Source of the DNA: Eledone cirrhosa | Lineage: Eukaryota | Direction: 5' to 3' | DNA: 64,000 nt | Assembly (NCBI GenBank): GCA_964016885.1 | Contig: OZ024740.1 | Location: forward strand, 334,676,001-334,740,000 | Shown here: positions 13,139 through 49,194 of the stretch, piece by piece | Layout of the letters: every line of letters begins with the position of its first letter | Numbering within the stretch: position 1 is the first letter of the stretch | Made by a program: the position numbers and the translations under genes | The notes under the pieces: generated by a model | Told to the model about the DNA's origin: nothing | Seen by the model: only the letters and a program-made list of their open reading frames with translations | Databases searched by the model: none

Positions 13139-16100
13139 TCAATAACTATTAACTTCTGTGCGTGTGTATGTACGTGCGCGTATGTTTATGTGTGTGTGCG
13201 TGCGTGCAGCCTTCCATAGAAAGTAAAATCTATCAACATGTGTGAGTGTGTGCGTGTGTAAGTTTGCGTGCGTGTGCGCGATTCCTTGCGTGTATGTGTG
13301 TGGCGTTCCACAATCGCCACGCAGTTTATCTGTATGTGTGCCTATCTGTCAGTATAACATACACAGAGTTGTGAAGGGAGTAAATAGGGACCTTTTTTTA
13401 CATTGACAGACATCTTTTATATTTTTTATTGTGTCATTTTTTGACAATTGCTCGAAAAGAATACTGATAATAAAAGCAATTCGACTTTATCAAACAGTGA
13501 ACTACAGCGGCGATGGCGTGCAGCCAGCAATGAAGAAAAGCGGGCCGAACAGCTCCATCGGAACGCCGAACTTCAGAGGCGAAGACGTGCCGCCATGAAT
13601 GAAGAGGAGCTGGCTGAACACGCCAACGAAACACTGGAGCCAAGCATCAACGGCGTGCTGCGATGATTGAAGACGAACTGGCTGAGCATCATCAGCAGAT
13701 GGCCAGAATTCAGCAGCAACAGCGTGCTGCGATGGATGAAGAGGAGCTGGCTGAACAACGCCAGCGCAATACAGAAGTTCAGAGAATGTGTCGCCAAAGT
13801 GCTTCTTATTCCAGTAAAGAGGCTAAAAGGCGAACGGATGATATTAAAAATGGATCATGGCAACCGTGTCATTTTCAGATTGGTGGACGAGCAGAGTGCC
13901 CACATTGTGGATCATTGCTTTGGAGGCAGGAACAGACGTGGACCCCAATGTGCTGTCATAAAGGAGCAGTTCAACTAGAACAATTGCGAGTGCTGGACGA
14001 TGAGGAGTCACCGGAGTTTAAAATACTAAGTATGTGGGGTGATCAAGGAGACCGAGGTAGATTACTGCGCAAATATTCGCGGCAAATTAACAATTCATTA
14101 GCTTTAGCATCGCAGAGAGTTAGTGAGATGTTTGAGAGTGGGGCATGGCAACCCAATGTAGTCATTCAAGGCCGTTTGTATCATTGTATCGGTAATTTAG
14201 AAGTTACCCCAGGTGAGAGGCCTCGATTCGCTCAAATTTACGTTAACGATCCAGATTATAGTGAATCGGAGGAGGATATCAGGATCGGTTGGATGAAGTT
14301 GCCGGGAAATATAACTGAACTTGAACGGCAAAGGTTAAGTGATTTGATCCGTGATTTGTTATCATGGCTAAGACATCGTAATCCTTATGTTATGGATTTC
14401 ATGTTGGTGGCTGAACTGCAAAATGTTCAGCAGCAAACATTGGTGATTAAGGCTGACGCAGTGCCAAGGAATCAACACGAACGGCGATATAATTCCCCTG
14501 AAGGATTTCGTGAAGTTGCTGTGTTGATGGACGATAAGCCTGGATCGGGAGATATCGTGCTCAATCGCAGAGATGGTGGTCTCAAGACTATCAAGGAGTC
14601 AAATAGGGCATACCATCCATTGCATTATGTTCTTTTATTCCCAAAAGATGAAAATGGATGGAACATGTCTGTTCATTTAGATGCTCATGAGAATCAGCAT
14701 CAACAGAGAGGCGGCGATAGACACAATAATTCGATTCGCGACTTTTACGCGTTCCATTTGAACGAGAGGAATCAACAGAGAAATGCGCTATTTCAAGCTA
14801 GCAGTTTGTTCCAGGAATACTGTTGTATGGCATTCGCAAAGATCGAAAATCAAAGGCTAAATTATATAGCTACACATCAGCAACATATCAGAGCTGAATT
14901 GTATAATAATATACAGGATGCGATAACAGCCGATGATGCCAATTACAAGCAAATTGGTCGACGCATCATTTTGCCATCGTCGTTCATCGGCGGCGCGAGA
15001 TATATGAACATTCGCTATCAGGATGCAATGGCTATTGTCAGAAAGTTTGGAAAGCCGGATTTGTTTATAACGGTTACATGCAATCCTGAATGGACTGATA
15101 TTAAGGATGCACTTTTGCAAGGACAACAGCCAAAGAACAGTCCTGATATTGTGGCAAGAGTATTCAAAGGATATCTGAAAAAGATAATGGATGATGTGGA
15201 AAAGGGGGAATCTTTGGAGGTATAAATATACCTCCAAAGATTTTACATACGTAATTGAATTCCAAAAAAGAGGATTGCCACATGCATATTTGCTGATCAT
15301 TTTACATAGAGATTGCAAATTGAGATGCGCTGAGGATGACGACAGAATTGTGTGTGCTGAACTGCCGGAGAATGAGGCACTAGGCAACTTGGTGGCAAAG
15401 TCAATGGTGCACAACCAATGCGGAGTGGCAAATCGGAAAGCGCCTTGCATGAACAATGGCCAGGGCAGCTTTCCGAAATCTTTTGTCACGAATACTTCCT
15501 GGAACGATGGCGATGCTCATCCCTCATACAGAAGACGGTCGCCTGCAGATGGCGGTTTGGTCGAAAATGTAAACGGTCGACAGGTTACAAATCAATGGGC
15601 TGTGCATACAATCCATATTTGATTATGAAATATCGTTGTCATATTAATATGGAAATTTGTACCTCAGAATATTAATATAGAAATTTGTAGCTTGCAAATA
15701 TCTATTCAAATATGTTTACAAAGTTCATGATCGGGAAATGATCAATATCAGGAATGAGGAAGCGAACCAAGATGAAGTTGGCAGGTTCCAGGATGTTCGC
15801 TCGATTGGATCTAGCGATTCTTGCTGGAGATTGTTCGATTTTGATCTCAATGAACGCAAACCCAGCGTTCAGAAACTGCCGGTTCACTTAGCGAAGAGGC
15901 AAATGGTCTGTTTTCAGGACACTAGTTGAGGTGTCGAAATAATTGCTAACGCACCACCTCCTAAGACGCAATTGACTGAGTGGTTCAAGCATAATAGGGA
16001 ACATGCTTTGAACCCGGATCAAAGGCAACTCTACTGCGATTTCCCTTCGCACTATACGTAGGATAAGAAGGATAAAAATGGAATGATAGAAAACAAAAGT

Positions 16101-18403
16101 TGAGATTCATAACTATTGGAACTATTGGACGGGTTTGTAATGTCCATCCAGAATCTGGTGATGTGTTTTATCTCCGAATTCTGTTGCATAATGATTTTTC
16201 GAGAAGTAAACAGAGCTTCGCTGATTTGAAAACAATCAGTGACATAGAATATGAAACATACCAGGCTGTGTGTCAGCATCTGGGACTCCTTCAGGATGAC
16301 GCTGAATGGAATAACGCCTTGGAAGCTGCTGGAACAACACAGATGCCAGCTCAAATAAGGCAGTTGTTTGTCACGATTCTAGGATTCTGCAATCCTGCCG
16401 ATCCACGAGAATTATTTGAACGCCATTGGGGAATTATGGCTGATGATTTTAGGCATCGTGTTCAGGTCGATGATGAAAATTTGATGAAAGCTATTGTTTT
16501 GCTCAATAGTGAGCAACTGCTTGAAGTTCATTTCAAATGTTTAACAGATTTCAATTTGCCAATTCCTGATGAAGAAATGCGGCAACGTGTCTTAGCATTG
16601 AACATGCGATTGCAGCTTATACGGTTGCCACTCGATCGGAGGGAATTATTCCAGTTTGATCGGCTGGAACAGCAACGTATTGTGGATGAAGGTATGCCAA
16701 TGTTGACCCAATCTCAGAGAGAATTGGTCAATGGCGTTCTCCAGTCGATTTCCACTAATGAGCAACTTTGTGCTTTCATAGATACTCCAGGAGGCACCAG
16801 AAAGACATTCTGTTTCAACACTATGTTATCGGCAGTCAGAGCTCAGAGGAAGATATTGCTCTCCCTGTGGCCACCAGTGGGATTGCTGCGACTTTGCTGA
16901 GTGGTGGAAGGACCTTCCACTAATGCTGCAAGGCTCCATTGGCTCCGGATGAGTTGAGTGTCTGTAACATTACAGGACAAAGTGAACTCGCGGGCCTTAT
17001 ACGCAATACATCTCTGATTATTTGGGACGAGGCTTCAATGGCACAAATATATTTGCTGGAGGCATTGGACATAACTTCGAGAGATATATGCGGTAGTGAC
17101 TTGCCATTCGGTGGTAAGACTATCGTTCTTGGTGGCGATTTCAGACAGGTGCTACCAATTGTTAGGAATGCTCAAAGAGCGCAAATTGTCGATGCATATC
17201 TGAAAAAGTCCACGCTGTGGGGCCATTTCAAAGTTTTGCGATTACACGATAATATACGACTTCGTATGTTCGGGAAAAACGAAGGGGCTGAGACATACGG
17301 CTGATGGTTGATGCAGTTGGGAAACGATGAATTGCCACACATTGGTGATAATCAGACTGTAAGAATACCAGACCATTTGGTCGTGCCACTGGACCGCCAA
17401 GCATTGATTGACTGGGTGTTCCCTAATTTGAATGCCTTTTGGAAGAATATCTCCTGGATATCGGAACGCGTTATTCTAACTCATACGAATGCAACGGTCG
17501 ATGAAATAAATTCACAAGTAGCCGGAATGGTAGTCCTGGAGAGGAATGGTTGACCGTTAGTGCGGATGCAATGGAGCCTAATCAGCAGAACAATATCTGA
17601 ATTCACTTCAAATACCCGGATTTCCCCCACATATTTTGAGGTTGAAAAAGGGTATGCCGATTATATTGCTTAGAAATATCAATCATGAAATGGGTCTTTG
17701 CAATGGTACCAGATTGATTGTTGAGAGATTGATTAACGGAAGAGTTTTAGAAGCTAAACTCCCAGGCAGAGAGGAATCGGTTCTCATTCCGAGGATCATG
17801 CTGTGACCAAGTGAAGATCTGCTGCCATTCATTTGGCAAAGGGGACAGTTTCCCGTCAATTTGGCCTTCTCCATGACTTTCAACAAGTCACAGGGACAGA
17901 CTTTCAAGCGAGTCGGTGTCTACTTGAATGAACCAGCATTCAGCCATGGACAACTGTATGTTGCTGCATCTCGAGTGTGCGATCCTGATAGTATAACATT
18001 TGCAATTGATACCACTAACAGAGGAACAGGCCTAAATATTTTCTATAATGAAGCTTTGAGCTAATGTATGCATATATTTAATGCTATCAATAAGCGACAT
18101 AAATGATTCGCACATTGGTGTCCTTTGATCAGTATTGTGAGCTTTGACAGAGTTATCATTTAGGTTCAATGTCATTTAATGTTGTTTTGAGCAATAAAAA
18201 CAAACAAGTATTGGTAACAATTGCTTTCACTGCTATGTTGCGCAATAAATACCAACACGCATTAAGAACCTGACTTAGGAATCTAGATGTTAACATATAT
18301 CTGCGGAGCTTCCGATACCAGAATCAGGTTCGATCATTAATCGATTGTTCCTCGAGCTGATCGACAGAGAAACGTATGTAATATGTATATGGTGCAACAC
18401 TAA
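13139..18403 (+). mobile_element. Helitron (decayed autonomous copy)
   Basis: Rep/PIF1 coding region; candidate ends A|TC at 13139 and CTAA|T at 18400-18403 are tentative. Confidence 0.85.
13448..18064 (+). pseudogene. Helitron Rep (HUH)/PIF1 helicase, frameshifted
   Basis: CPHC..CC Zn finger, PDLFITVTCNPEW, EFQKRGLPHAY, KYLFKYVYK, Walker A PGGTRKT, DEASM, GGDFRQVLP, TFNKSQGQT, FSHGQLYVAASR. Confidence 0.95.
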
Positions 18404-18529
18404 TTCTTTGTTCCCTTATATATTACTATTCTCTCTCTATATATATATATTTATATATGTATATATATATATATTTCGTTTCTGAATTTGTTTAGCAATA
18501 TTCTTTATCTGAAAACGTGTGTTGAAACC

Positions 18530-21145
18530 GATATTGTTATGCTTTGGGAGGGTCATGTTGTCAATAAGAAACACACGCACCAGTTGCTTTCACTCCAATT
18601 TATTATAAGTTAAATTTATAAATTTAAGAATTTATAAATTTCCGGTTGGTTGGTTGGTTGGTTCCACAACCGGACGGTTATTCATATATTGTCAAAGTTC
18701 TTTCGTAACACATTCTGAGACCTCTTCAGTGACTGGGGATTATTTTCTTTGTTTTTGTGCCTCTCCTTTGTTCTGTCCTACGCCATCTTCTTTGTGTGTG
18801 TGTTGTGTGCTTAGTTTGCGCATTTTTTACATCCGGGTGTCTGTGTGTGTTCATATTTGTTTATTTATTTGTTTATTTACATGTTACTGGTTGGTTGTTT
18901 GTTCTATGTGTGTGTGTGTTTTCATTTTGTCCTTAATTGTAAGTTGTGATGTTGCGATTCCATTCATGTTTTCTATTTAATTTTTGTTGGAGTTCATTTA
19001 TGTTTATTGCCTCTGTGATTTGTCTAAACATTGCGTCTTTTCTGTGTGTAGATTCTATTTTTATTTCTATGTTCTTTAATTTACCCTTATGTTCTATTTT
19101 AGCATGTTGGTAGAGTACAGATGATTCTTTACTATCTTGAAGTTCTCGCCAGTGTTCATTTATCCGTTCTCCTATACTACGAGCTGTCTCACCTATGTAC
19201 ACTGTATTCTTATCTCTACATTGTCCTTCATTACATCTTATGCTATATACATTTCTAGTTTTACGGTTAATATGAGGGCTTAGTTTACAGATTCTTATCT
19301 ATACAGGGAGGTCTTTGAAAAGGGTATGTATTGCTAATAACTCTTTTTATGGAGGTACCTGGTATTTCTACTATCTTAATATTGAGTTTATGTTTATCTA
19401 GGGCCCTTCTCAATTTGTAAGCTAATTCACCTCTAGGGGTTGTATTGATGAACATTACACTCTGGTCTTTATTGCTATCATACAATGGGTTTATTCTATT
19501 AACCTTATTCCTCGTTCTTTCTATTCTATTCCAAAATTTGCTCCTATACAAGGGGCAGGTCCGATTTGTATCATATTTACCATTTTTCCCCATTTGATTC
19601 TGGCTCCTCTATATACTCTGATTTTATCTCTCTGATTGTAACCAGAGAACTGCATACGGTGGATGAAGTGTTGTATGTGTCTCTCAAGTTATTTAGGGTT
19701 GCACATGCTGAACACGTTTCTCATCTCCCGTACCAAATCCGCAATCAATATGTTGATTTTAGTTTGGTCCGAAACAGCTGGGTTTCGGTGGATCAGATAT
19801 TTGGAAGTCATGGGTTTGGCATAATGGGAATGTAGGATTATGCCAAACCCATGACTTCCAAATATCTGATCCACCGAAACTCAGCTGTTTCGGACCACAC
19901 CAAAATCAACATACTGATTGCGGATATGGTACGGGTGATGAGAAACGTGTCCCACATGTGCAACCCCAAAGAACTAGAGAGACATATACAACACTTCATC
20001 CACCGTATGCAGTTCTCTGGTTACAATTAGAGAGATAAAATCAGATTATATAGAGGAGCCAGAACCAAATGAGAAAAAAAGGTAAATAATAATACAAATG
20101 GGACTTGCCCCTTGTATAGGAGCAAATTTTGAAATAGAATAGAAAGAACTAGGAATAAGGTTAATAGAATAAATTCATGGTATGATAGCAATAAATACCA
20201 GAGTGTAATGTTCATCAATACAACCCCTAGAGGTGAATTAGCTTACAAATTGAGAAGGACCCTAGATAAACATAAACTCAATATTAAGATAGTAGAAAGA
20301 CCAGGTACCTCCATAAAAACACATATTAGCAATACATACCCTTTTCAAAGACCTCCCTCTATAGATAAGAAATGTATAATCTGTAAACTAAGCCCCATAT
20401 TAACTGTAAAACTAGACTAGAAATGTAGTATATAGCATAAGATATTCTGAAGGACAATGTAGAGATAAGAATATAGTGTACGTAGGTGAGACAGCTCGTA
20501 GTATAGGAGAACGGATAAATGAACACCTACGAGAGCTTCAAGATAGTAAAGAATCATAATGTACTCCACCAACATGCTAAAATAGAACATAAGGGTAAAT
20601 TAAAGAACATAGAAATAAAAATAGAATCTACACACAGAAAAGACGCAATTTTTAGACAAATTACAGAGAAAATAAACATAAATGAACTCCAACAAAACTT
20701 AAATAGAAAACATGAATGGAATAGCAACATAACAACTTACAATTAAGGACAAAATGAAAACACACACACACATAGAACAAAAACCTAACCAGTAACATGT
20801 AAATAAACAAATAAATAAACAAATATAAACACACACAGACACCCAGATGCAACACATGCGCAAACTGAGCACACAACACACACAACAACAAGATGGCGTA
20901 GGACAGGACAAAGGAGAGGCACACAAACAACGAAAAGAATACCCAGTCACTGAAGAGGTCACAAAATGTGTGACGAAAGAACTTTGACAATATATTAACA
21001 ATCGTCTGGTTGTTGAAACCATCCAACCAACCGGATATTTATAAATTCTTAAATTTATTAATTTAATTTATAATAAATCGGAGTGAAAGCAACTGGTGTG
21101 GTGTTTTCTGATTGGCAACATGACCCTTCCAAAGCATAACAATAT
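18530..21145. mobile_element. Head-to-head inverted pair of 5'-truncated PLE copies (~1.3-kb arms)
   Basis: Arms meet at an 11-nt spacer (19826-19836); both encode HYAKPMTS..PLYRSK..TPRGEL..YIGETARSIGER and end in the same pLTR. Confidence 0.9.
20946..20988 (+). ncRNA. Hammerhead-like motif (inverted copy at 18691-18733)
   Basis: GTCA CTGAAGA g GTCACA-aaatg-TGTGAC GAAA GAAC TT TGAC; one extra G before stem II. Confidence 0.6.
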
Positions 21146-21382: not shown

Positions 21383-21414
<32 letters not shown>

Positions 21415-21419
<5 letters not shown>

Positions 21420-22305
21420 TATGTACACGTACATACATATATGTATACCGACGTACAGTAGTATGTATATATATATATACATACATGCACACATATATAT
21501 ATGCACGTATGGATTCACAGAATATTTATTATAATGCTCGGTGTGTTTGTAAACAAACATCCCGTATTAAGCCGTAGTGTCTAGCAACGACCGTTGCTCG
21601 TTTGTTCAACACTGACAAAGGAACGCTGTACTAGTTTCAAGCTTGTTAGCTATCGTCAGCAACGTATACCTTCCTGCCAGATTGTTGAACGTATATACTT
21701 ACCTTATGCATATTAACGGCTGAGTAGCCCAATTTGCATATCGAGTGGGTTAATCGGCCGGGTACACCGAAAACGATAAACGGAAAAAATGAAACGATAT
21801 TTCATTTCCCACTCTTAGTACGGCTGTTACTTAAATATAAGTATGTACACGTACATACATATATGTATACCGACGTACAGTAGTATGTATATATATATAT
21901 ATACATACATGCACACATATATATATGCACGTATGGGCTACTCAGCCGTTAATATGCATAAGGTAAGTATATACGTTCAACAATCTGGCAGGAAGGTATA
22001 CGTTGCTGACGATAGCTAACAAGCTTGAAACTAGTACAGCGTTCCTTTGTCAGTGTTGAACAAACGAGCAACGGTCGTTGCTAGACACTACGGCTTAATA
22101 CGGGATGTTTGTTTACAAACACACCGAGCATTATAATAAATATTCTGTGAATCCATACGTGCATATATATATGTGTGCATGTATGTATATATATATATAC
22201 ATACTACTGTACGTCGGTATACATATATGTATGTACGTGTACATACTTATATTTAAGTAACAGCCGTACTAAGAGTGGGAAATGAAATATCGTTTCATTT
22301 TTTCC

Positions 22306-22310
<5 letters not shown>
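21415..22310. mobile_element. ORF-less 422-bp HHR unit, tandem on - strand plus permuted inverted copy
   Basis: AAGTATGTACACG at 21417 and 21839 (period 422); 21935-22310 is the reverse complement of 21730->21415 continuing into 21835->21777. Confidence 0.8.
22000..22042 (+). ncRNA. Minimal type I hammerhead ribozyme (inverted copy at 21623-21665)
   Basis: ACGTTG CTGACGA tAGCT-aaca-AGCTt GAAA CTAG TA CAGCGT. Confidence 0.85.
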
Positions 22311-22343
<33 letters not shown>

Positions 22344-22387
22344 AGGAAGTTATAGTTCACTTGAAGCATTGTGTAATGAGGTATAAT

Positions 22388-22835
22388 CGTTTGTATTTGT
22401 AAAGCCAAAACAATGCAGGTATGGACATAGAATATAAATGCAAATGCAAAAGATATTGTTGACAATTAGTCTTTTACCTTAAATGTATTTAAATGTCCTT
22501 AATTTTCAAGATAATATCTTCTTCGGGGGGAAGTAAAGCGGTTAAATCAGTGTTCTAAATAGATTGCCAAGTCATACTGACAGGAAATGTTATAGAGTAT
22601 CTGTTCGTGCTCTAATGTCAAAGAGTTAAGGTTAGGTGGATAGAGAGTAGTCTCCTTTTAAAAGGTGTTTTGTACATGTATGTGTAAGTGTGTGGGAGAA
22701 TACGTGAAGGTGTAAGTATGTGTGTGTGTGAGAAGATATGTCTATACGTAGATGTGGGGGATAGATGCTCTCTTGTGTTAGAACTGGTCTTTGTGTGTGT
22801 ATGTGTATGTGTGAGAGAGAATAAGTGGAGGTGTA

Positions 22836-22886
<51 letters not shown>

Positions 22887-23187
22887 ATGTGGGAGGGGGG
22901 GGGGGTATGTATGGGGCTAGATACTCTATCAAGTTATAAATTGGGTGTTGAGTTCTAGTCTATTATTGATTGGTGGTTGCGTTTTGTCTATAATTAGTGC
23001 TTCCTTAATTCTAAGATTGCCGAGGTTTCTTTCCTTAGTTTCTATCCTAACTGTTATGGTTTTATCTCGAAAATTAAGGACATTTAAATAAATTTAAGGT
23101 AAAAGACTAATTGTCAACAATATATTTTGCATTTGGATTTATATTCTATGTCCATACCTGCATTGTTTTGGCTTTACAAATACAAAC

Positions 23188-23188
<1 letters not shown>
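22388..23188. mobile_element. Probable pLTR remnant with terminal inverted ~125-bp copy
   Basis: 22388-22513 is the reverse complement of ~23063-23188; degenerate CCGAAGA..GAAA motif on - strand near 22496-22530. Confidence 0.55.
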
Positions 23189-23233: not shown

Positions 23234-23430
23234 CGAAGGAAGTGTGTTAAGTAACCAGCTGGAACAAAACGCACCAAAATACTCGATACTACGTAGGAGA
23301 GTTGGTAATAGTAAAAGAGTCAGGACCCCGACGGCTGATATCCGGCCGTTTCGATAGCTATGTCTGAACGCAAACTTAGCTGTCGAAGCAGCCGCAGCTC
23401 AGCCGTCGGGGTCCTGCTGACTATTTTCCT
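23233..23430. mobile_element. Short inverted fragments of the GUC-HHR pLTR family
   Basis: Similar to 29735-29932, 38013-38122, 50020-50152 and 57109-57216. Confidence 0.7.
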
Positions 23431-23446
23431 ATATATATTTATATAT

Positions 23447-24960
23447 ATGGAGAAAAAGTTTATGAAACGGAAATGCGGGTATAAAGAATTTATTAGGGAA
23501 CAATTGTTTCTATAGTGTATGGGTTACCTATACCTCGCTATTTGAATAATATAAAAATATTATCATAAATCGTAGGTACACTGTAAGAAAACACACTAAG
23601 ATTATCTCACAATTCTATACACTAATCAATAAACACTTTACAACTTCACATAAATACTATAAAATCTTAAACTCGCGCACCATTAGACTCTCATACTCCA
23701 CTGAACAACTAATTAAAAAACTCAACTCAACAATACTAAATAAGTACATCCCTAATGACACAGCGCACCAGCATAGCAACATACAACGCATTAACACGCA
23801 TCTACAACCCCACCTAACTATCCAGGATACTACTGCAAAACATAAAAATAACTGTAAATGCACCAAACCAGGTACGTGCCCACTGAATAACCAGTGCCTA
23901 GCACGCAATATTGTCTACCGATGTACAATAAATTCCGGAACCAACACATGGTATTACGTCGGATGTACCGCAACATCTTTCAAAGCTCGCCTATACCAAC
24001 ATCGATCTTCGATCAGGCATGAGAAAATGCGCTCCGTAACAACCCTCGCCGATAAAACCTGGCAGCTTCGGAGGAACAATCAAGCATTCTCCCTTGATTG
24101 GCAAATTATTACACTTGCGCCTGCATATAAGCAAAATCATCGATTCTGTAAATTATGCAATATGGAGATATACTGCATCTTAACGTCGGAAAACAAACTT
24201 TTGAACAGCAAAATTGAACGTTCACTTTACTGTAACCATCGTTTGAAAACGACTTTTTCTTTTTTTAAATGCATGTAATGTCACCTTTTTACACCACAGT
24301 TTGCAAATTTCTGTTTTATATGTTTATACACACGATATGGCTTTCTATAATAATAGTACTAAACACTGTTTTTGGACCCCTTTATAAATAATCTGCTACT
24401 ATAATAGCCCCAATAACTTGTCTGTAACTCTATACCACTTTAACCCCTTTAACTAAATTTTGTCCAAACAACACCACTAGAAGAATTTACTTCTCCCGCC
24501 AACCCTTACACGACTCATTAAGCTAACTGGTGCCAAGGCATTCTCTCCTTACAATCTCTACTACTCTGACAGTCTTAAATCCTAAGACTCCCTCCCCCTT
24601 ACTCGCTTCCCTCTTCCCCTTCCCTTCCTACCTCCTTCTTTATCTTATATCGAGTGTATAAAATATTTTCATATCATTCTACTACAAAGGTCTGATGACA
24701 TGGTGTGTTTTCTTACCGTGTACCTACGATTTATGATAATATATTTATATTATTCAAATAGCGAGGTATAGGTAACCCATACAATATAGAAACAATTGCT
24801 ACCTAATAAATTCTTTATACCCGCATTTCCGTTTCATAAACTTCTTCTCCATATTTTCTCCGGATTTTAAAACACACTTTATTATACGTTGAGCAATCTC
24901 CGACGTCGGTTGACTCCATCCAATGCGACTACTTATTAACATTGGAATACAAATTTATTA
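23447..24960 (+). mobile_element. 5'-truncated Hydra-like PLE with inverted pLTR; GIY-YIG remnant ~23597-24278
   Basis: CKCTKPGTCPLNNQC, NIVY..YVG, CKLC..E, LLNSKIE..CNH; 23447-23596 is the reverse complement of ~24705-24853. Confidence 0.88.
24688..24804 (+). ncRNA. Hammerhead motif with ~90-nt stem II, U16.1 mutated in this copy
   Basis: AGGT CTGATGA .. GAAA CAATTG CT ACCT; the inverted partial copy reads GAAA CAATTG TT. Confidence 0.55.
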
Positions 24961-26302
24961 ATTATATATATATATATAATTAATAAATCTTGATAAATTC
25001 CGTAAAGATTTAATTAGTACCTTTGCTAATCTTAACCTTAAAATTACTATAGATACGAACCTTACTAATGCTAACTTTCTTGATATTAATCTTGATCTAC
25101 TTACTGACTCTTTTAAACCCTATCATAAACCTAATGAAAATCTTAGGTATATACACAAAGAGTCTTGCCATCCCCCTATAGTTTTTAATAATCTTATTCC
25201 TAACATTAGCCATAGGATTTCTACCTTATCTTCGTCTATAGACATTTTTAATAAAGCCGCCCCTTATTATAATAAAGCCCTTAAGAACAGCGGTTTTACA
25301 GAAAATATTTCTTATTTACCTACTCCCCCCCCCTAAAACTAACCATAATAACAGGAAAAGGAAGATTATTTGGTTCACACCCCTCTTCTCTCTAAATGTC
25401 AAAACTAATGTAGGAAGGAAATTCCTTGAACTATTAGACAAACATTTTCCTCCTATTCATAGATATTATAAGATTTTTAATAGGAATGTAGTTAAGATCA
25501 GCTACTCTTGTTGCCCATCCATGAAGTCCAAAATCACCAGTTCAAACCGTACGAGGATAAATCCAGGATGCAGTTGCAGGAAGCCGGATGAATGCCCATT
25601 GCAGGGTAAATGTAACACAAAATATGTCGTTTATGAGGCTAAGATAACGCCAGTTATCAACAACCAGCCAGCCAGAAGTGAGCGATATGTCGGTATGACC
25701 CAGGACAGGTTTAAAACCAGATTTTACTCACATGTCGCTTCTTTTAAACACTCAGATAAACGAACATCAACGGCCCTCGCAAGTAAGGTATGGGATCTCA
25801 AGGATAGTAATATCCCGTACTCTATTGATTGGTCTATATTAGACCATTCGAGGGAGTACCAAAGGGGCACAAAGAATTGTTCTTTGTGTACCACAGAAAA
25901 GTATAGGATTTTGCTAAACTTGAGAGCCACTTCCGCTTGCCTTAACTCAAAGACTGAGATCTTCAGATGCTGTCCTCATCTGAAATCGCATCTGATCTGT
26001 AACTGGATTGACACTCCTACGATAAATCAACCGCCTTGAACTCCTTCTCTGCTCTTTACTTTTGCTACGGTTTTTATTTTGCTGATTCTACCTTCTGTAC
26101 TCTTGTATATTTAAAAAATGTTTTCTCCCTTACCTCCCCTTATATTTTTACCTCCTCTTAGCCCCCCCCCCCATATATTCTTTTTGTTTTGCCCTTCACA
26201 TACCTATGTGTATGTGTATGTATTTTTGTGTGTATATATATGTGAGTATATATGTATATATGTACGTATATGTTTGTGTGTATATATATATATATATATA
26301 TT

Positions 26303-28292: not shown

Positions 28293-28341
<49 letters not shown>

Positions 28342-28348
<7 letters not shown>

Positions 28349-28448
28349 ATCTATATTTGAAGTTCACTCTAAACTTCAATTAGTTGCGTACCTAGCTATG
28401 TGTGCTTATACCCTTTACAAATTATCCCCTATGTTTGTTTTATATGTT

Positions 28449-28522
<74 letters not shown>

Positions 28523-28940
28523 TTCTAGTTGATATAAAAGCTCGGATCTATTCATTGGAATCTTTGAGCATTTTCTACAGAGGTTGTGGCGCATGTTTCT
28601 CAGAAATGACATCCTTAATTTTTAAATGTATCATTTTCAAATGCAACACGTGCTTCTAATTATTCGCAGATTTGCACTTGCTGTGTAAGCACAAATAGTT
28701 AAATATATTCCTTTGCTGACGATCCGTGATTTGACTACTGTGATTTAGCGATTGATAGTGAAATATATACAAAGGAGCTTAATCATTTTTAAAAGGAATC
28801 TATATTTGAAGTTCTCGTTAATCTTTAATTAGTTACCTACCTAGCTATGTGTGCTTACACTGTTTACAAATTATCCCCTGTGATTGCTTTATATGTTTAT
28901 TTCATATATATATATATATGTCAATCGATTTCTAGTTGAT
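28342..28940 (+). mobile_element. ORF-less ~450-bp tandem HHR unit (retrozyme-like)
   Basis: CTATATTTGAAGTTC..CTAGCTATGTGTGCTTA..TTTACAAATTATCCCCT..CGATTTCTAGTTGATAT occurs from ~28351 and ~28800; HHR between the copies. Confidence 0.7.
28709..28776 (+). ncRNA. Type I hammerhead motif
   Basis: Perfect 7-bp stem I TCCTTTG/CAAAGGA around CTGACGA .. GAAA TATA TA; stem II pairing is weak. Confidence 0.72.
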
Positions 28941-28941
28941 A

Positions 28942-29061
<120 letters not shown>

Positions 29062-29673: not shown

Positions 29674-29734
<61 letters not shown>

Positions 29735-29736
<2 letters not shown>

Positions 29737-29931
29737 AAAATAGTCAGGACCCCGACGGCAGAGCTCTAGCCGTTTTGACGGCTATTACTGGACGTCCAAA
29801 AATAGCCGTCGAAATGGCTTGAGCTCCGCCGTCGGGGTCCTGACTATTTTCCTATTATCCACTCTACTACCCAATATATTGAGTACTCTTGTGCGTTATG
29901 GTCCCCCTGGTTCCTTACCACACTTTCTTCG

Positions 29932-34442: not shown

Positions 34443-34544
34443 GTGCGTGTGTGTGTGTATAGTGTATAGTGGTAGCTATGGTGCTTCCGTAGGGGGTATG
34501 ACAAAATAAATTAACACTCGATATTCATCAGAGTAGAGTGTAGA

Positions 34545-34885
34545 TATTATAAAGAAAACGAAAAATCAGTGATGCTTCTCGACTTCGTTTATTTCGTGTT
34601 ACAAATGTTTCGCCGGCATGTAGCTCGAGTCATGGTCCTTGTATGGATCTGGCTGATTCTACTTCTGCGGGTTCCTTCAGACACGGGTGTTATGTCCGCA
34701 GCAAATGTTATCACAGTGATAACATTTGCTGCTGACATAACACCCGTGTCTGAAAGAACGCGCAGAAGTAGAATCAGCCAGATCCATACAAGGACCATGA
34801 CTCGAGCTATATGCCGGCGAAACATTTGTAACACGAAATAAACGAAGTCCAGATGCATCACTGATTTTTCGTTTTCTTTATAATA
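34545..34885. repeat. Near-perfect ~340-bp palindrome with an HHR-like motif in each arm
   Basis: Centre GTTATCAC-A-GTGATAAC at 34715; arm motif CGTGT CTGAA(A/G)G .. GAAA CATTTG TA ACACG (34745-34835). Confidence 0.85.
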
Positions 34886-35825
34886 TATATATATATAATT
34901 GTGTATGAACATGTGCGTGTTTATCCATATAATTCGATCGCACTTATGTATAGTGATTATCCCAAGATTCGTGACAAAAAGACATATAATAACTGCCATA
35001 AATACATAACAGGTAATCTTATAAAACTTATATAACAAATTTTGTTTAATAACATAAAGTATGTATAACACAAAATTTCCTTTAATATCTTAACAATTTA
35101 ACACTTTATAAGATTCCTATATCTTAAATTAAATTAAAGAATCCTTTATATTTTGTATGTATATGTTATATACGTACTTAGATATGTATATGTATTTTTA
35201 TAAGTGTGTATATATATTTTTTGCGTGTGTATTCGTGTTATGTTATATATAGATCTTTAATAATATATTGATTTCTTAATATATAGATCCCAATTTTTAA
35301 TATATTGATCTCAATATTTAACTGATTAACTAAACATCTTATCATATTTAAACAATGGTTAAATTTTTCATATTATATATGTATATTCCATTCATGATTA
35401 TTAACATTTCTAATTTTTATTTATTCATTTCATCTCAATTGTTAAGTTAACTCAACAAGATATGACTTAGAGTTTTTCGTTCTCTCTCATTTTTTTCGTC
35501 TCCTCTGTTTCTCTCTCTGTTTATTCTGCTCTCTCTCTTTCATTCTCTATCTTTCTATTTCTCCGTAACACAACGGCTTATTTTAAAAATATCCAATACT
35601 AATAATTAACGCTATAACTCCCCTATCCGGGAGCTTCCAACAGTAATGGTTGCATTCTTTAAGGGTATGTCAATATTTATTTATAAAACTTATCTATATT
35701 ATATTTTATCTAATGAAAGCACACCATAATTTAACTTGGTGTCCTTGAAATATGTATAATGAAATAAATATGGTTTTATAAATATAGTTTCCATTTGTTA
35801 ATATCGTATATATATATATATATAA

Positions 35826-36026
35826 TTTTAATATAGATGAGATTCTACAGGACTAGAACTGTTGCATTCTTTAGAAATCATCAAGAATCTCATGATTCCT
35901 GATGATTTCTAAAGAATGAAACAGTTCTAGTCCTGTAGAATCTCATCTATATTAAAACTTTTACACTCTGCAATGTATTGAGTACCTTATCACCTGTGGT
36001 TACCTCTGATTCAACCCGGAATAACG

Positions 36027-41411: not shown

Positions 41412-44091
41412 GAAAGTACGAAGGCTGCGTTGTCAGAGCTAGGGTGCGTGCTCTCAGACACGAGGGGACGAAAGCCGTTCAATGGGCTCGAGTGGCGGAG
41501 GCGCGTCGTGGCAACAAAGCCACGATCCGGTCTTTGGTGGACCACGACGGGCGCTTGCTACTCGATCCCGGGTAAATGTGTGAAGCTTTTCAGCGACACT
41601 TCGCTCGGTTGTTCGGGGGCAGCGGCGGGCCGGATCGAGGGATGGACTTTAGTGTCTACCTCGACGGACTGCCGCGGCTCTCGGCCACTGAGGCGGAGAT
41701 TTGCGGAAAGCCGATAACAACCGCTGAAGTACGCGAGGCAATGACTGGCTGCACAAGGAGTAAATCGCCTGATTTGGATGGTCTGCTCTATGAACTTTAC
41801 GTACAGATGCCAGACTTGTTCGGAGGCCTCTTGGCGGACGTCTACTGCAAATGGCAACAGAACGGGAGAATTCCCAGCTCTGTGAGCCGAGGAGCTTTGG
41901 CGATGTTGAGAAAGGATCCGAACAAGGGGGATAACATAGATAATTTTAGGCCCATAACTCTGCTAAACACAGAGTTCAAGATTTTGGCCGAGTTGCTAGC
42001 AAAGAAGTTGGCGCTTATCGTTGGTGGTCTGGTGGGAGAGGCGCAGACATGCGCCATTCCCGACAGATCCATCCACGACAACCTCCACCTCATGCGATAC
42101 ATCTTAGAGAGGGTAGCTAGGGAACCTGGCACGGGTGGGTCCTTGATCAATTTAGATCAGTCGAAAGCTTTCGATAGGGTCGACCATCGTTACCTAGCGG
42201 CAGTCCTGAGGGCGGCTGGCTTTGGGCCCGTCTTCAGAGGCTGCATTGCTGCCATGCACAGCGACATCAGCTCTGTGGTGAGAATGAACGGTCACCTTTC
42301 GGAACCATTCAACATCATGCGCTCGGTCCGCCAAGGATGTCCCCTCTCGTCCCTTTTGTACGTATTGATTCTCGAGCCATTACTGCACAAACTGGAGACA
42401 TTGAGTGGGGTCCCGCGCGAACTAGGATGCGGAAGATCCGTGTCAGCATATGCGGACGATGTCACCGTAGTGGTGTCGAACGCCAAACACATCGAGACAA
42501 TCGGCACTACACTAAGAGAATACGAAACGGTGACAGGAGCAATGATCAACCAGGAAATGTCAGTGGGCCTGAAGCTCGGCACCTGGAGAGGCAGGTCCAT
42601 GCCGTCCAACAGCGTCGTCGGGCGCTGGACGGACGGACCAGTTAAATTGCTCGGGGTCTGGTTCGGTCCGGATCTCTAGACGGACAAAAACTGGGACGAG
42701 GTGACGAGCAGGTTGGCTTCTCTCATCCAGAAATGGGCCGAGAGGAAGCTATCCCTGAAAGGCCGAGTGGAGGTGGCTAACGCGTATATCGCGTCCGTCA
42801 TCTACTACCGCCTGACCGTCGTACCTTGTCCTAAGCCCCGCCTGACTGCGCTAGAGCGTTTGCTCTTTCGCTTTTTGTGGAAGGGACGCGCTCCAATTGT
42901 CAGGCGGTCCATCTGCTGTCAACACCCGCTACGTGGAGGGCTAGGAATGCCGTGGCTGATGATGCGCAGACACGCGCTCAGGCTACGACATCTCCACCTC
43001 TTCCTCGACTGTAATCAGATGTGGTCTCCGTTTGCTAGACGCGTCTTTCCCCAGCTCGTCTCCTTGACGGAGCTGCAGTCCTGGGTCAAGCGAAACCGAG
43101 AAAGAGCGCTTGGAGACTGGAATGTCTTCAGGCGCTCACAGACCTCAACCAATTGGGTAATGTGATCGGTGGAAATTCCACCTTGGCGTTCTGTAGAGGA
43201 TTAGTGGAGGAAAAGAGCGACGACGTACTTGGGGAAACTCTAGGCGTCGACGAAAATCAACTAGCCAATCTCTTCGGAAGAACTTTCGGGCCGGGGCCTA
43301 TGCACAACTTCCAGAAATCCCTGGCCTGGCAGTGCTACCGAGGAGCTTTGCCAGTTCGGGATAAACCCTCCAGGTATGGAGGTGCCGTTCGCCGGGCATG
43401 TCCGAGATGCACGCAGGGCGACGAAGCCGTCTTGCACGCACTCGTACACTATCCGAGCATTGCTGACTTGTGGGTTTATTTCGAACACCTGCTGTCGCGT
43501 GTAGGACGGATCCAGCTATCAGGTGAGTCCATCGCGAAGATTGCCCTGCCATCTTGCTTTAGCCGGGAAGAGCAGGCAATTTTTATCTGTCTGGTGGCCA
43601 TGGCGAAAGAGATACTATGGTGGACACGTTTGAAAGGGCTGAAGACGAGTACTTACCTCTTCGGTGATGCCCTGATTAACTTTTTCAAATTTCATTTGAA
43701 AAGGAAAATCAGGGTAGAGAGGGAAGTGCTCTCTTCCCAGCATTTTGTTGAAAGAGGGGTGAGAGAGGCAAGAAAGGCCCGAGTGAATGGGCCTACTCTG
43801 AGTATGTGTCTGTAAATTAAAGGTGGAAAACTGGGAGAGGGCACTTGCCCTGGTGGTCAGGGCCACTGTGTCTTTTTAATTGGCTTTCTCTACGAATTAT
43901 CCCTCGGAAGTCTCACCCGTATTGGGGAAATTTTCATTGTTATTTTTTTGTTACATCCTCTGTTTTTGTTTTTTACACACAGAAATGCCCACTTGTACCG
44001 TCATGTATTGTCCTGTACTGCCATTAATGTCTACTTTATGTAAACCCTTGTGGTTAATAAAGAAAGTATTATTATTATTATTATTATTATT
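41412..44091 (+). mobile_element. 5'-truncated L1/Tx1-clade LINE
   Basis: RT with NFRPITLLN, LDQSKAFDRV, RQGCPLS, AYADD; C-terminal CPRC..H; AATAAA followed by a (TTA)n tail. Confidence 0.92.
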
Positions 44092-44519
44092 GGTCTAAGC
44101 CGACGTATTTTGCTCGCTCACAGTAAGTCGCTTTATTTGCCTGTTAAAATTATTTGTTGTTAAATATGTCTTGTTGTGTAAAGACTTTGCCCAGTGAAGG
44201 GCCTTTTGGCCCAAATATTTGAACTTTTTTTTACATGTTAAAAATTTTACGAAGAAAAAAATACATGGCTGAGCCACGCCCCCCCCCCCCCCAGCGATAT
44301 GTCGGCTGTCGTCCGACAACGACGTAGGAGTTGAGAGGAGCGCTACAGCGAAATTAACACACATTGATAACACAAAGACAACCACAAACAATGTAAATAA
44401 AGACACCAATGATACCAATAAGAACACTAATTTTGAAAAAAATGACAGTAACAGCGACAACGAAAATACAGATAACAAAAAAAAAATAACAATGCAACAA
44501 CAATATCAACACCACCAAC

Positions 44520-46248
44520 ATGAAAACAAATAGCGACAACACCAACAGCGACAATACCAACTGCACCGAGAACAACGGTGGCAACAAATACAACAATGAA
44601 AACAGCGACAGTGCTAACAACAACACCAACAAGAATAACGTCAACAAAACACCCAACGAAAACAAGAACACTTTCGCTGCGGCAGCAGCAAAAAAGAGGC
44701 CATGCTTCGACATGGACCTCTCAAACAAAGATGAAAAGTTGGCCCAGGCATGGAAGCTCATCAAACAAGACCAAACTTGGGCCGACTTAACTGTCCCGGT
44801 AGAAGCTATTGCGGCAGTGGAGCGCAAAACAGTGCATTATAGATGCATCTCAGCACAAACCAAAAGGGCAGCTTTAATCCCACAAGCAGATGTCGAAGTC
44901 GCGCTGAGGTGCATTAGAGAAGACACCCAGTGCATAGAGAGGGGCAGACAGTACGGCACCATTTCGGTGTGGTTCAAGTCAGAAGCCCTCGCTATGAAAC
45001 ACGCTATGACTCCTTGCAAAACCAGCAAGGTCATAATGTACCCTTCCCACATGAGAAAAAGAACGGCTCGTCTCCGCATTCCCAGAATCCCACCAGGACT
45101 TGACATGTGGTGGCTTCTGGGATGTGTGATTGTGGAGGGGACGGATACAGTCCCTATAGAAGTGACCAGAACGGCCAGAGAGGACTGGTCCGGGGTTGAC
45201 CTGGAGATCCTTCTCCAGATCAGGCCCGAGAATGTGAAGACAATCCCGGACCACATTCGCCTTCACAATGGGACGGTCATTCACATTATGACCGAAGGCA
45301 AAAGGCCGCAGTGTTTTGTTTGTGGGGAAAAAACCCATTTGCGAGCCTTCTGCCCTCAACTGCTGAAAGAGCAAGGGTTCGAAAGGCTCCACTGCTGCCG
45401 ACGCCGGGGCGAGGAAAACAACCAACACCAGCACCGGCAAAACCACCAAAAACAACACCAATAGAAAGACCACCAGCAACATTGACCACCCAGGAGAGAA
45501 ACGAGGAACGATGTCAAATTCCCCCTCCCCCCCAAAATACACACACCAATAAAACCATAAACATACATACAGACACACTTACCGACACAGACCCCTCATA
45601 TACCAGTAGTGAAAATGAGGGAAATCCCAAATCCCCCAAAATACAAAAAAGGAAACACAAAGATAAAAAAAAAACTCAACAAAGCACAAAAGCACCCACA
45701 ATAAAAAAACGCAAACACCACCCACGCAAACATCTCTCCAATAACACCAACATCAACACCACCATCACCATCACCAGAATCCCCCAAACGCAAACAACCG
45801 AAACAGACGCAAGAACAAATATACACACAAACATCTGAAACCACAGACACCGCACTCACAACAAACACAGATACAACCGAATATAACACTACCAAAACCA
45901 TCACCACCACAGCCACGCAAACAAATAAAATCACACAAACAAAACATACAAAACTTCGTGCTCGTCAGGAGGGCCAACAATGAACTGATGGCCCTCGTAG
46001 CACGAAGTGAAAATATACAAAAAGAGGGGGAAATTTTTAAATCGAGCACATTTCGCGTGCCGGAACATTTGGTTATGGTGCGAATGTCGCTCGACATATT
46101 CAAAGAAATACGAGACAGCTTTCCTCGGGACGTGGGAACCCCGAACGTAAAACCCACTTCAAGACTTTTAAAGGGGTTCCCAAAAGAAACCCCACTAACT
46201 ATGGAGGTCGAACAACCCGACCTTCACAAGAGTCCGGAAGGTAAGTAG
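44520..46248 (+). pseudogene. Tx1 ORF1 (gag-like, CCHC knuckle), frameshifted
   Basis: TFAAAAAK; CFVCGEKTHLRAFC (CX2CX4HX4C); low-complexity N/T-rich and P/K-rich segments. Confidence 0.8.
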
Positions 46249-46279
46249 ACCTTCCTCTCTCTCTGTTTAGCCTGCCAAC

Positions 46280-49194
46280 ATGGCCGTATTAAGAGTAGGA
46301 TGTTTAAATGTTCGCGGCCTGGGACCGTCCTGGAAGCAGGGTCAGCTGCTCAACGACCTCAGGTCTATAGAAATGGATGTAATTGCGGTCAGCGAGACCA
46401 GGATTTCCGACACGCGCGCACTAGCCCCCATTTTCGACGACTATCAGATCTTTGCATGTTAGCCGGCCGGGAATGGGAGGCGGGGTGGCAGTGCTGTTTA
46501 GGAAAGGCCTGGATCTCGAGGTAAGGTCGATCTTCCGGGACCCGGACGGGAAGTTGGTGGTCCTGGACGTGAACAATAATGAAGGTGGTGCCTTTAGACT
46601 GTTGGCCGTCTATGCTCCTACTGGGACAGGACGGCCGGACTTCTTTAGACGCCTGGAAGCCTTTCTGTGTAAGTCTCGGCCTTTACTGTCAGCGGGGTAC
46701 TGGAACGGCATCTTAGACGCACGCTGGGACTGTGTGGGAGTATCCGATATGAGCGGGGGGTACACAAGCCTCAAGAACCTGATCAGCCAGTTCCAACTCT
46801 CTGACAGGTTCCGACTAGATTTCCCTAATGCGCCAGTGTGGACCTGGGCTAACCGCATAGGTTCATCTAGACAGGATATTCATATAGACAGGATATTAAT
46901 TAGGAAAATAGACAGAAATAGTGTAAGCTGTCCACGTTTTGAAACGGTCGCCTATTCAGATCACAAGTTTGTGATCTGTATGGTCGACCTAGATAAGACG
47001 CGTAGGTTAGAACCTGGTTACTGGAAGCTAAACATGTCATTTCCGGCACGCAAGGCTTACAGGGACCAGGTCAACAATTTAGTTAAGAAAAAGTTGACAG
47101 GAGGAATCGTCAACAATAGATGGTGGGGGGATTTCAAAAGAGAGTTTAGAGTAATGTCGATAGAGTTTAGCAAAGAAGTAGCATTAGAGAAAAATAGAAA
47201 GGAGGGGTAGTTGGTAGATAAGTTAGACGAGGCTATTGGTAGTGGCATTGCAACTGACGTGCTAGCGGCGAGAATGGCATTAGACCATTTCTTCAATGCG
47301 AAACACGAAGGTTGCATTGTCAGAGCCAAGGCGCGTGCTCTGAGAAACGAGGGAATCAAAGCTGTTCGATGGGCCCGCGTGGCAGAGGCGCAGCGTGGTA
47401 ATAAAACCACGATTCTGTCTTTGACGGACCGAGACGGGCACGAGCGGAGCGATTCCAAGAGGATGTGTGAAGTCTTTCGCCAACATTTTGCTCGGTTGTT
47501 CGGGGGAAGTGGCGGGGCAGAGATGGTGGCGGACTTAAGTCCCCAACTCTCGGCGGCTGACGCTGGGCGCTGCGAAAGGACAATTACTTCAGCCCAGATT
47601 CAGGATGCCCTTGTCGGCTGCATGAGGCGCAAGTCACCCGGTTTGGATGGTCTGCCCTACGAGCTTTACGTAAATATACCAGACTTGTTCTCCAATCTCC
47701 TCGAAGCCCTCTACTGCAACTGGCAGCAAAACGGGAGTATTCCCAGTTCTGTGAACCGGGGCGTAGTGACGCTGATAAGGAAAGACGAGAACAAGAGGGA
47801 GACATTAGACAATTTCAGGCCCATAACTCTGCTCAACACAGAGTTTAAGATTTTGGCCAGGGTGTTAGCGAAGAGGTTGGCGCTTGTCGACGGGCATTTG
47901 GTTGGGGAGGCGAAAACTTGCGCAATCCCAACCAGGTCCATACACGACAATCTCCACCTAATACGATACATCATATAGAGGGTAGGGTGTAAACCTGGCT
48001 TCGGTGGGGCCCTGATCAATTTAGACCAATCGAAAGCATTCGATAGGCTCGACCATCGGTACCTGGAGGCTGTCCTCAAGGCGGCTGGCTTCGGCCCCGT
48101 CTTCAGAAGCTGGATCGCTGCAAAACTTAACCCGGAAAAATCAGTGGGCTTGCAACTCGGCACCTGGAGAGGCAAGTCCATGCCGTCCAACAGCGTCGTT
48201 AGGCGCTGGACGGACGGACCGGTAAAGTTGCTAGGGGTTTGGTTCGCGCCAGACCTCCAGGTGGATACGAATTGGGACGAGCTGACGGGCAGGGTAGTCA
48301 GTCTCACACAGAAATGGGCTGGGATGAAGCTATCACTGAATGGTCGGGCGGAGGTGGCGAATGCGTACATCGCGTCCGTCATCTACTACCGTCTGACTGT
48401 CGTCCCTTGCCCCCATTCGCGCCTCACCATCTTGGAGCGGCTCCTCTTCAAATTCTTATGGAGGGGTCAGGTTCCGCCGGTGAGGCGGTCCATCTGCTGC
48501 CAGAACCCTCTACGTGGAGGGCTGGGCATGCCGTGGCTAATGATGCGCAGGCACGCGATGAGGCTGCGGCATCTCCAGATATTCTGTCTAAACGGTAAAC
48601 AGGTGTGGTCGCTGTTTGTCAGACAGGCTTTTCCGCAGCAAGTTTCTTTGACTGAGTTGCAGTCCTGGGTCAAGAAGAGACCGAGACTGGGTGACTGGCA
48701 TCTGGAATATTGCCAGGTACTCACTGCCCTCTACCAGGCGTCAATGCGGTCAGTGGAACTTCCACTCTCAAGTTCTATAAAGGGATAGTGGTGGGCAAGT
48801 GCGACGACACCCTCGGAGAGGCTCAGGGCGTCGACGAAGTCGAACTAACCAGTCTGTTCCGTAGGACTTTCGAGCCGGGGACGATTGATAATTTCCAAAA
48901 ATTCCTCGCTTAGCAGTGCTACCGGGGTGCACTGCAGATTCGAGATAAACTCTACAGGCACGGTAGGGCAGGCAATTTTCCTCTGTCTGGTGGCAGTAGC
49001 GAAAGAGGTTGTATGGTGGACGAAGTAGAAAGGACTGAAAAGTCACTTTTCTCTTCGGCCAATTCCTCATGAACTTTTTCAAATTTCACTTGGAAAGGAA
49101 GGTGAGGGTGGAGAAAGAAGTGCTGCCACCGAGCTGGGTGAATGTGGCAAGAATGGCTCGTGCGAGTGGGCCTACTCGGATCATGCGCCTGTAG
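46280..49194 (+). pseudogene. Tx1 ORF2 (APE endonuclease + RT), disrupted
   Basis: LNVRGL, SET, GGGVAVL, VYAP, IDRILI, SDH, PGYWKLN, SPGLDG, FRPITLLN; the QG/YADD block is deleted near 48121. Confidence 0.92.

Follow-up and report, generated by a model that had tools for sequence, protein, structure and literature searches.

The insertion at positions 21415–22311 of the analysed window (64,000 nt of Eledone cirrhosa DNA, contig OZ024740.1, positions 334,676,001 to 334,740,000) consists of a 422-nt hammerhead ribozyme (HHR) unit repeated in tandem and in inverted orientation between two (TA)n runs, which raises the question of what kind of element it is, which enzyme inserted it and from which template. 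The locus is a back-to-back insertion of a non-LTR retrozyme into (TA)n, probably mobilised in trans by a Penelope-like element (PLE) protein, with a circular RNA as the likely template. The element class is already known, and the window locus is an ordinary dead-end copy.

Architecture of the Locus

The unit, designated U, is the reverse complement of 21415–21836, and its positions are numbered u1–422. The insertion is flanked on both sides by a (TA)n target microsatellite, the left half of which lies at 21387–21417 and the right half at 22309–22341, and both arms run into it at their outer ends. The left arm (21415–21936, minus strand) is tail-less and comprises u325–422 followed by a full u1–422, with the element 3′ end at 21415; the full unit (21415–21836, minus strand) has 38% GC, is strongly self-paired and contains no ORF longer than 48 aa, while the preceding unit (21837–21936, minus strand) is 5′-truncated and consists of u325–422 plus one extra TA. 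The right arm (21934–22311, plus strand) is tailed and matches u106–422 and u1–61 exactly, with the element 3′ end at 22311. The 61-nt tail, u1–61 (22251–22311, plus strand), separates the two fixed 3′ ends described below, and a long TA/TG-rich hairpin is predicted at 22155–22241 on the plus strand, directly upstream of the tail-less end point. The arms point outward, their 5′ ends are joined by a 3-nt microhomology, TGG, read from the sequence at 21934–21936, and they are 100% complementary across 322 nt. The preliminary description of a tandem and inverted 422-nt HHR unit, with nearly identical copies devoid of an ORF, is borne out by these data, the longest ATG ORF over the left arm being 48 aa.

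Each arm carries one type I hammerhead. In the left arm (21623–21665, minus strand) the predicted cut falls between 21629 and 21628 (GUA/C), and in the right arm (22000–22042, plus strand) after 22036; the cut after A22036 had been proposed at the outset and agrees with its left-arm counterpart after 21629 on the minus strand, both lying after u208. The folding z-score of the unit is −6.1 against 100 shuffles, and the predicted circular fold has an MFE of −131 kcal/mol, from which the hammerhead conformation costs 1.4 kcal/mol. Since there is a single hammerhead per strand at 21415–22311, the locus is unable to release a monomer and is a dead end; the two same-sense hammerheads that mark an active element according to Li et al. 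2026 are absent here and present at loci L068 and L089. The haplotype C248/T318 occurs in both arms of the window locus and in none of the others among 152 loci.

Hammerhead Ribozyme

The U hammerhead is composed of CUGACGA, a U.U at the base of helix II, an AACA loop and GAAA-CUAG-UA, with 6 bp in helix I, 4 bp in helix II under the U.U mismatch and 2 bp in helix III inside the palindrome ACUAGU. In the available text of PMC4209133, the canonical metazoan type I hammerhead is dimer-dependent, with 6 bp in helix I, 4 bp in helix II and 1–2 bp in helix III with a palindromic loop, and the PLE min-HHR has 7–8 bp in helix II, 4–5 bp in helix I and an extra unpaired base before helix II. By this definition the U hammerhead is of the canonical metazoan type I and lacks the features of the PLE min-HHR; the earlier claim that each copy carries an intact minimal HHR is therefore right as to one intact motif per arm and wrong as to its "min-HHR" form.

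The G10.1-C11.1 pair is replaced by U.U in U and is present in the sister family V, and loop 2 is AAYA in both; most hammerheads have G-C where U has U.U, which counts against a ribozyme-dependent cycle. Across 18 hand-picked natural variants, 91% of helix cells pair and 6 of 13 pairs show two-sided change; as these rows are mutually related (U subfamilies and one sister-family copy), the counts serve as support and not as a probability. The hammerhead core is slightly less variable than the rest of the unit (45/2,816 vs. 1,746/79,551), and purifying selection on it within U was set aside as weak. It has been reported that insertion by a PLE enzyme did not need ribozyme cleavage and that unprocessed RNA was the dominant substrate (PMC11167929), and that 8 of 9 Xenopus retrozyme dimers were not cleaved in vitro (10.64898/2026.07.22.740005, available text).

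Family Size and Sampled Loci

Exact matches to the 41-nt hammerhead number 1,719 genome-wide and 0 in the reversed control, so they are not due to chance. There are 3,556 exact junctions of tail and TA, corresponding to at least 3,556 tail-ended insertions, together with 1,604 exact tail-less ends at TA (control, 20) and 4,625 exact unit-to-unit read-throughs from u61 to u62; arrays in the family range from 1 to about 38 units. The tandem unit with a type I hammerhead, the absence of a protein-coding region, a GC content below 50%, the stable self-paired monomer and the thousands of copies support the assignment of the window insertion to the non-LTR retrozymes. Its designation as the best retrozyme candidate of the window thus holds for the class of element; as a dead end, the locus is not a source. 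A U array of more than 20 kb on C12 (G000:C12:20415000-20435920; L106–L108) is a satellite-like higher-order repeat with recurring internally deleted units, in which u97–289 are missing and the hammerhead is lost.

Two samples were analysed, both mostly from the first third of contig C1. Sample 1 comprises 63 loci, namely 43 clusters from the first 100 of the 1,719 hammerhead matches and 20 further loci; it excludes L002–L009, L011, L019 and L023, whose sequence overlaps or duplicates other pieces, as well as the large arrays on C12 and C4 (L106–108, L110–111). Sample 2 was drawn from the first 100 of the 3,556 tail ends, minus 9 rows covered by sample 1, and comprises 91 tail ends at 89 loci.

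Sister families share this organization, and three or more young retrozyme families, with units of 422, about 467 and 310 nt, are present in the genome. Family V (L087:5850-7001; G000:C1:30831609-30840868, L291–L292; L293–L294) has a unit of 465–468 nt with 61% identity to U and a hammerhead with 5,096 exact matches, a G-C-closed helix II and a GUU cut site; its arrays are very young, with up to about 20 identical units across both arms. In V locus A, 18 of 18 units are identical over both arms and carry three changes absent from the other V loci with full units; V locus B has 2 locus-specific alleles in 20 of 20 units, and L295 has two in 6 of 6. Unit length is also locus-specific in V (465, 467 or 468 nt), and the units are seamless at the cut. 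Among array-wide changes in V, 11 of 24 are A>G on the hammerhead strand vs. 3 of 69 singletons, and 8 distinct A>G changes face 1 T>C, with polarity set by majority only; three of the array-wide A>G variants of V locus A lie within 6 nt. In U the bias is not significant (4 vs. 2 of 16). The V bias is a possible lead for a change at the RNA stage, which might be A-to-I editing of the template RNA. Family W (L095:3904-6452), located in a TA run adjoining a U insertion, has a 310-nt unit, a hammerhead with a CGCG loop, about four near-identical units per arm and one tail.

Fixed 3′ Ends and the Single Tail

Among the 121 arms of sample 1, 62 have their 3′ end at u59–62, 47 at u415–422 and 11 elsewhere, and 1 ends at the locus edge; of the 109 arms ending at one or the other site, 105 continue into a TA-rich flank. 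The 11 off-site ends, mostly with non-TA flanks, are likely due to later damage. The 5′ ends are scattered over the unit; an apparent pile-up at u1 (12/121) was taken, in view of the flanks, as a filter artefact, the short u391–422 pieces having been dropped. The copies had been described as circularly permuted, and a survey of their start points had been proposed; permuted start points are ruled out by the two fixed 3′ sites 61 nt apart, which account for 109 of 120 arms. Two fixed 3′ sites constitute a PLE tail, so the run-on of the inverted copy into the next unit, previously taken as the mark of a circular or multimeric template, has a cause other than a circle, the 61 nt being a fixed PLE-type tail.

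It was found that 32 of the 42 back-to-back pairs in sample 1 combine a tailed with a tail-less arm (including one local duplicate), 0 are of the same type and 10 are unscorable. In sample 2, 49 tail ends have a partner arm, which is tail-less in 43 cases (one a duplicate), other in 6 and tailed in 0; in family V, 15 of 17 pairs are mixed, 2 are unscorable and 0 are of the same type. Two apparent tail-less/tail-less pairs, L155 and L157, proved to be run-merging artefacts, with a tail piece in both (u1–49 in the old L155 pair). The tail is therefore on exactly one arm, without exception among the scorable pairs of the sampled U loci and V. For PLEs, the available text of PMC3846280 and PMC8557442 describes the tail as optional, or as often present at one end; it has been reported to be the gap separating two internal sites at which reverse transcription begins, the enzyme, a predicted dimer, nicking both strands and extending each of them (PMC11167929). 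The 61-nt tail of U would likewise lie between two such start sites, and the whole signature of a PLE-mobilised insertion is found in U, namely a fixed 3′ end, an optional tail, random 5′ truncation, an inverted 5′-joined copy and a (TA)n bias.

Origin of the Two Arms

Rare alleles are common to both arms in 13 of 51 pairs vs. 85 of 5,260 cross-locus pairs, and differences at two or more subfamily sites separate the arms in 3 of 44 pairs vs. 69% of controls, which indicates that both arms come from the same source. The absence of a shared rare allele in 38 of the 51 testable pairs counts against the favoured reading. The alleles that are shared would be expected equally from a single RNA and from two RNAs of common source, and local gene conversion occurs (L064). 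Tailed arms of 65 nt or less, compared as a test for stalling on one shared RNA, make up 11 of 49 paired and 13 of 42 solo arms.

The ribozyme cut site is read through in 92 of 109 arms, 5′ ends at u205–213 number 2 of 121 where about 2.6 are expected if uniform, and no indels occur at u205–215 in 207 units; together, the read-through, the lack of a 5′ stop at u209 and the lack of an indel leave circles or uncut multimers as templates. At L068, 130T is present in 9 of 9 units on both arms, and such array-wide variants on both arms favour a monomer bottleneck. A circular template is accordingly favoured by these variants and by the lack of a 5′ pile-up or indel scar at the cut.

Some arrays are less uniform. 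Patterns of period 2 occur at L012, L087, L097 and the V locus L298, and patterns of period 3 at L109 and in the left arm of V locus B; the alternation is strict at L175, at L298 and in the left arm of L293, at L061 one arm alone carries 70C, in 6 of its 7 units, and neighbouring units differ at two or more subfamily sites in 7 of 99 pairs. These arrays indicate that dimer or trimer templates, linear multimers or duplication at the DNA level contribute. L175:315-4585 alternates AB five times, and its other arm has 2 of the A alleles without the others, so that part of this pattern arose after insertion; post-insertion changes in L175 and L109 led to the rejection of AB alternation as proof of dimer circles. 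We infer that some arrays were remodelled as DNA after insertion, and perfect arrays could have been smoothed by assembly.

Search for an Autonomous PLE

No U copy is joined to an ORF in the sampled loci (sample 1 and 40 tail-selected loci), and no RT + GIY-YIG ORF between pLTRs was found in sampled U loci with Hydra-like proteins as the queries. By inspection, the 5′ flanks shared among solo arms are further unit pieces or short matches. The PLE beside L146/L111, considered as a partner, is a neighbour and is not joined. No similarity to U was detected across 30 P0001-family loci, a combined U and V profile gave no further hits in 1.4 Mb, and the matches to a degenerate hammerhead pattern were mostly mutated U copies; the partner search covered a minority of the PLE families. 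A distant PLE ancestor for U is likely.

Uninterrupted PLE-type ORFs exist in the genome. For instance, a 5′-truncated PLE-type ORF in the window (6580–8538), also represented at L119 and L123, belongs to a family with uninterrupted copies of about 817–834 codons elsewhere; the L123 copy reads YRGD vs. YRDD in the window copy. In Pfam, no family match was obtained for P0001, P0002 or the 817-aa ORF. The PLE identity of these ORFs rests partly on Atlas neighbours with GIY-YIG/HTH_animal and partly on motifs that we take to be diagnostic, "Hydra-like" and "Neptune-like" being motif labels and not tree-based names.

Proposed Mechanism and Alternatives

For the retrozyme mobilised by a PLE enzyme, cleavage, ligation and circle formation may proceed as follows. 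Arrays with at least two same-sense hammerheads would be transcribed, the hammerheads would cut, probably as dimers, and the monomer would be ligated to a circle. A (TA)n-targeting PLE protein would likely nick both target strands and prime reverse transcription from both ends, one cDNA beginning at u61 and the other at u422, which would make one arm tailed and the other tail-less. Reverse transcription would run round the circle for a variable distance, from 0.1 to more than 10 units, and the two cDNA ends would join through microhomology. A more specific version can be put forward tentatively, as possible and somewhat short of probable: the two active sites of a PLE dimer would be obliged to use different starts, one per strand, giving each two-armed insertion a single tail, the arms would be multimers of one RNA made by rolling-circle reverse transcription, and V circles would gain A-to-G (editing-like) changes. 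The general reading, a retrozyme mobilised by a PLE enzyme, predicts that each strand uses one of two start sites 61 nt apart, that a 422-nt circle is closed at u208/209 and that a monomer circle gives multimeric cDNA.

The nature of the template separates this mechanism from two others that keep the reverse transcription step. An uncleaved linear multimer of the same family could have been copied by the same PLE enzyme, with duplication or conversion at the DNA level keeping the arrays long and the hammerhead a passenger. Read-through of the cut site fits this equally well, the dominance of unprocessed RNA as a substrate (PMC11167929), the heterogeneous and AB/ABC arrays and the higher-order arrays of more than 20 kb on C12 point the same way, and unequal crossover is discussed in the available text of Li et al. 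2026 (10.64898/2026.07.22.740005); however, variants fixed in all units of both inverted arms and the locus-specific unit length of V require a monomer bottleneck followed by re-multimerisation, and at V locus A the DNA expansion would have had to take place on both arms before one mutation arose in more than 8 kb, which makes this template unlikely. Such a bottleneck without ligation would be supplied by a cleaved linear monomer on which reverse transcription, having reached the 5′ end at u209, jumped to the u208 3′ end of that monomer or of a different one; template jumping is a property of non-LTR reverse transcriptases, and jumps between different RNAs would explain mixed neighbours. The 5′ ends, which show no excess at the cut, the absence of indels at u205–215 and the seamless V units nevertheless make the jumping monomer very improbable.

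The other two alternatives concern the origin of the copies themselves. That they are 5′-truncated ends (pLTRs) of one autonomous PLE accords with the tail, the inversion, the 5′ truncation and the TA targeting, all standard PLE features in the available text of PMC8557442 and PMC3846280, and with the PLE ORF fragments that lie within a few kb of many copies on the same TA-rich ground. Against it stand the 422-nt period with its 4,625 exact unit-to-unit junctions and the tail-selected sample of 40 loci, in which the sequence continues past u61/62 into the previous unit in 26 of 78 arms and each of the 3 arms ending at u52–75 is joined to an inverted arm; moreover, where neighbouring ORFs were closely examined, (TA)n lies between ORF and copy or the array interrupts the ORF. 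The preliminary description had named simple pLTRs of one autonomous PLE as the reading that would overturn its own, and with these results that reading is largely refuted and has very little probability left. Fold-back self-priming, proposed for head-to-head PLE structures in the available text of PMC3846280, would explain arm identity and is compatible by length with 19 of 32 pairs, several of which have palindromic centres; in the other 13 of 32, the window locus included, each arm holds sequence for which its partner could not have been the source, so the template was accessible to both. Together with arrays made by DNA rolling-circle replication, against which the array-wide A>G bias of V on the hammerhead strand points weakly to a sense RNA stage, fold-back is scarcely credible here, the least probable of the readings weighed.

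Other Elements in the Window

The hammerhead motif has 14 hits in the window, and an Rfam scan of the window gave no match at the gathering score. Short palindromic or tandem elements, some with periods of 288 and 449 nt, lie at 812–1429, 1596–1947, 2226–6220, 28341–28986, 34541–34889 and 35826–35957; several carry hammerhead motifs, with cuts at 1262, 1652/1891, 2344/6058, 28769 and 35937. The one-sided tail recurs in three further PLE palindromes of the window. A large back-to-back palindrome at 18475–21145 is a decayed PLE with a C-terminal GIY-YIG and a tail of about 56 nt on the left arm only, has hammerheads at 18695 and 20984, and is presumably Neptune-like by its motifs; those at 22342–23188 and 23433–24965 are PLE ends inserted in (TA)n as two arms, of which a single one is extended in each case, and 23550–24278 encodes a GIY-YIG-like fragment. 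Small fold-back elements of about 125 nt at 23308–23432 and 29732–29855 are 79% alike and MITE-like, and Helitron-like helicase (PF14214, PF05970) and LINE-type RT/endonuclease fragments occur at 13618–16900 and 41576–48788.

Comparison with Known Systems

In L1 twin priming, both target strands prime cDNA, giving an inverted 5′-joined insertion with microhomology, and the arms derive from non-overlapping regions of a single RNA, the second start being variable. U differs in that its arms overlap and both starts are fixed.

Insertions of endonuclease-bearing (EN+) PLEs (PMC3846280, PMC8557442 and PMC11167929, in their available text) resemble U in their 5′ truncation, inverted 5′-joined copy, optional tail at one end, microhomology junction, (TA)n preference (Hydra, Naiad, Neptune) and hammerhead upstream of the reverse transcription starts. 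U differs from them, as far as those texts describe, in having no ORF, a 422-nt period instead of kilobases, a tail of 61 nt instead of 30–40, arms that can both be long multimers and a canonical hammerhead instead of a min-HHR. Chlamys elements such as MRC1 are, in the available part of PMC8557442, likewise non-autonomous PLE dependants with multicopy head-to-tail insertions, but their 3′ end resembles an autonomous family and most Chlamys lack a hammerhead.

Metazoan non-LTR retrozymes, as described in the accessible text of PMC7229834 and 10.64898/2026.07.22.740005, share with U an ORF-less tandem unit with GC below 50% and one type I hammerhead, a range from monomers to long multimers, thousands of copies, a self-paired fold and co-occurrence with PLEs. 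The U.U at the helix II base is found in axolotl HHR_Amex2, and the palindromic helix III loop in HHR_Amex1. The 422-nt unit exceeds the 170–400 nt given in the available text of PMC7229834 and lies inside the 51–972 bp given in that of Li et al. 2026. In the same texts, circRNA expression is shown for metazoan retrozymes, the U circle being a putative one; PLE-type tails, back-to-back arms and (TA)n targeting, present in U, are undescribed there for retrozymes. By title and abstract, no prior report of the tail rule or of both-arm uniformity in retrozymes was found among openly accessible papers.

It has been reported that metazoan retrozymes show no motif indicating a helper (PMC7761336, available text), and circles have been proposed as templates for multimeric cDNA, with PLEs named as candidates (PMC7229834 and PMC7761336, available text); the route from circular RNA to PLE enzyme is thus an earlier proposal, now testable. 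Retrozymes have been linked to pLTRs by phylogeny, the mechanism being left open in the available text (10.64898/2026.07.22.740005). The same sources (PMC7229834, PMC7761336, Li et al. 2026) treat the identity of the enzyme behind animal retrozyme mobility, and the role of circles as real templates, as open questions; PMC8557442 does so for the way in which PLEs make tandem and inverted insertions tailed at one end. The full PLE insertion signature, combined with arrays uniform over both arms in three families, links the question of the retrozyme helper with that of the PLE tail.
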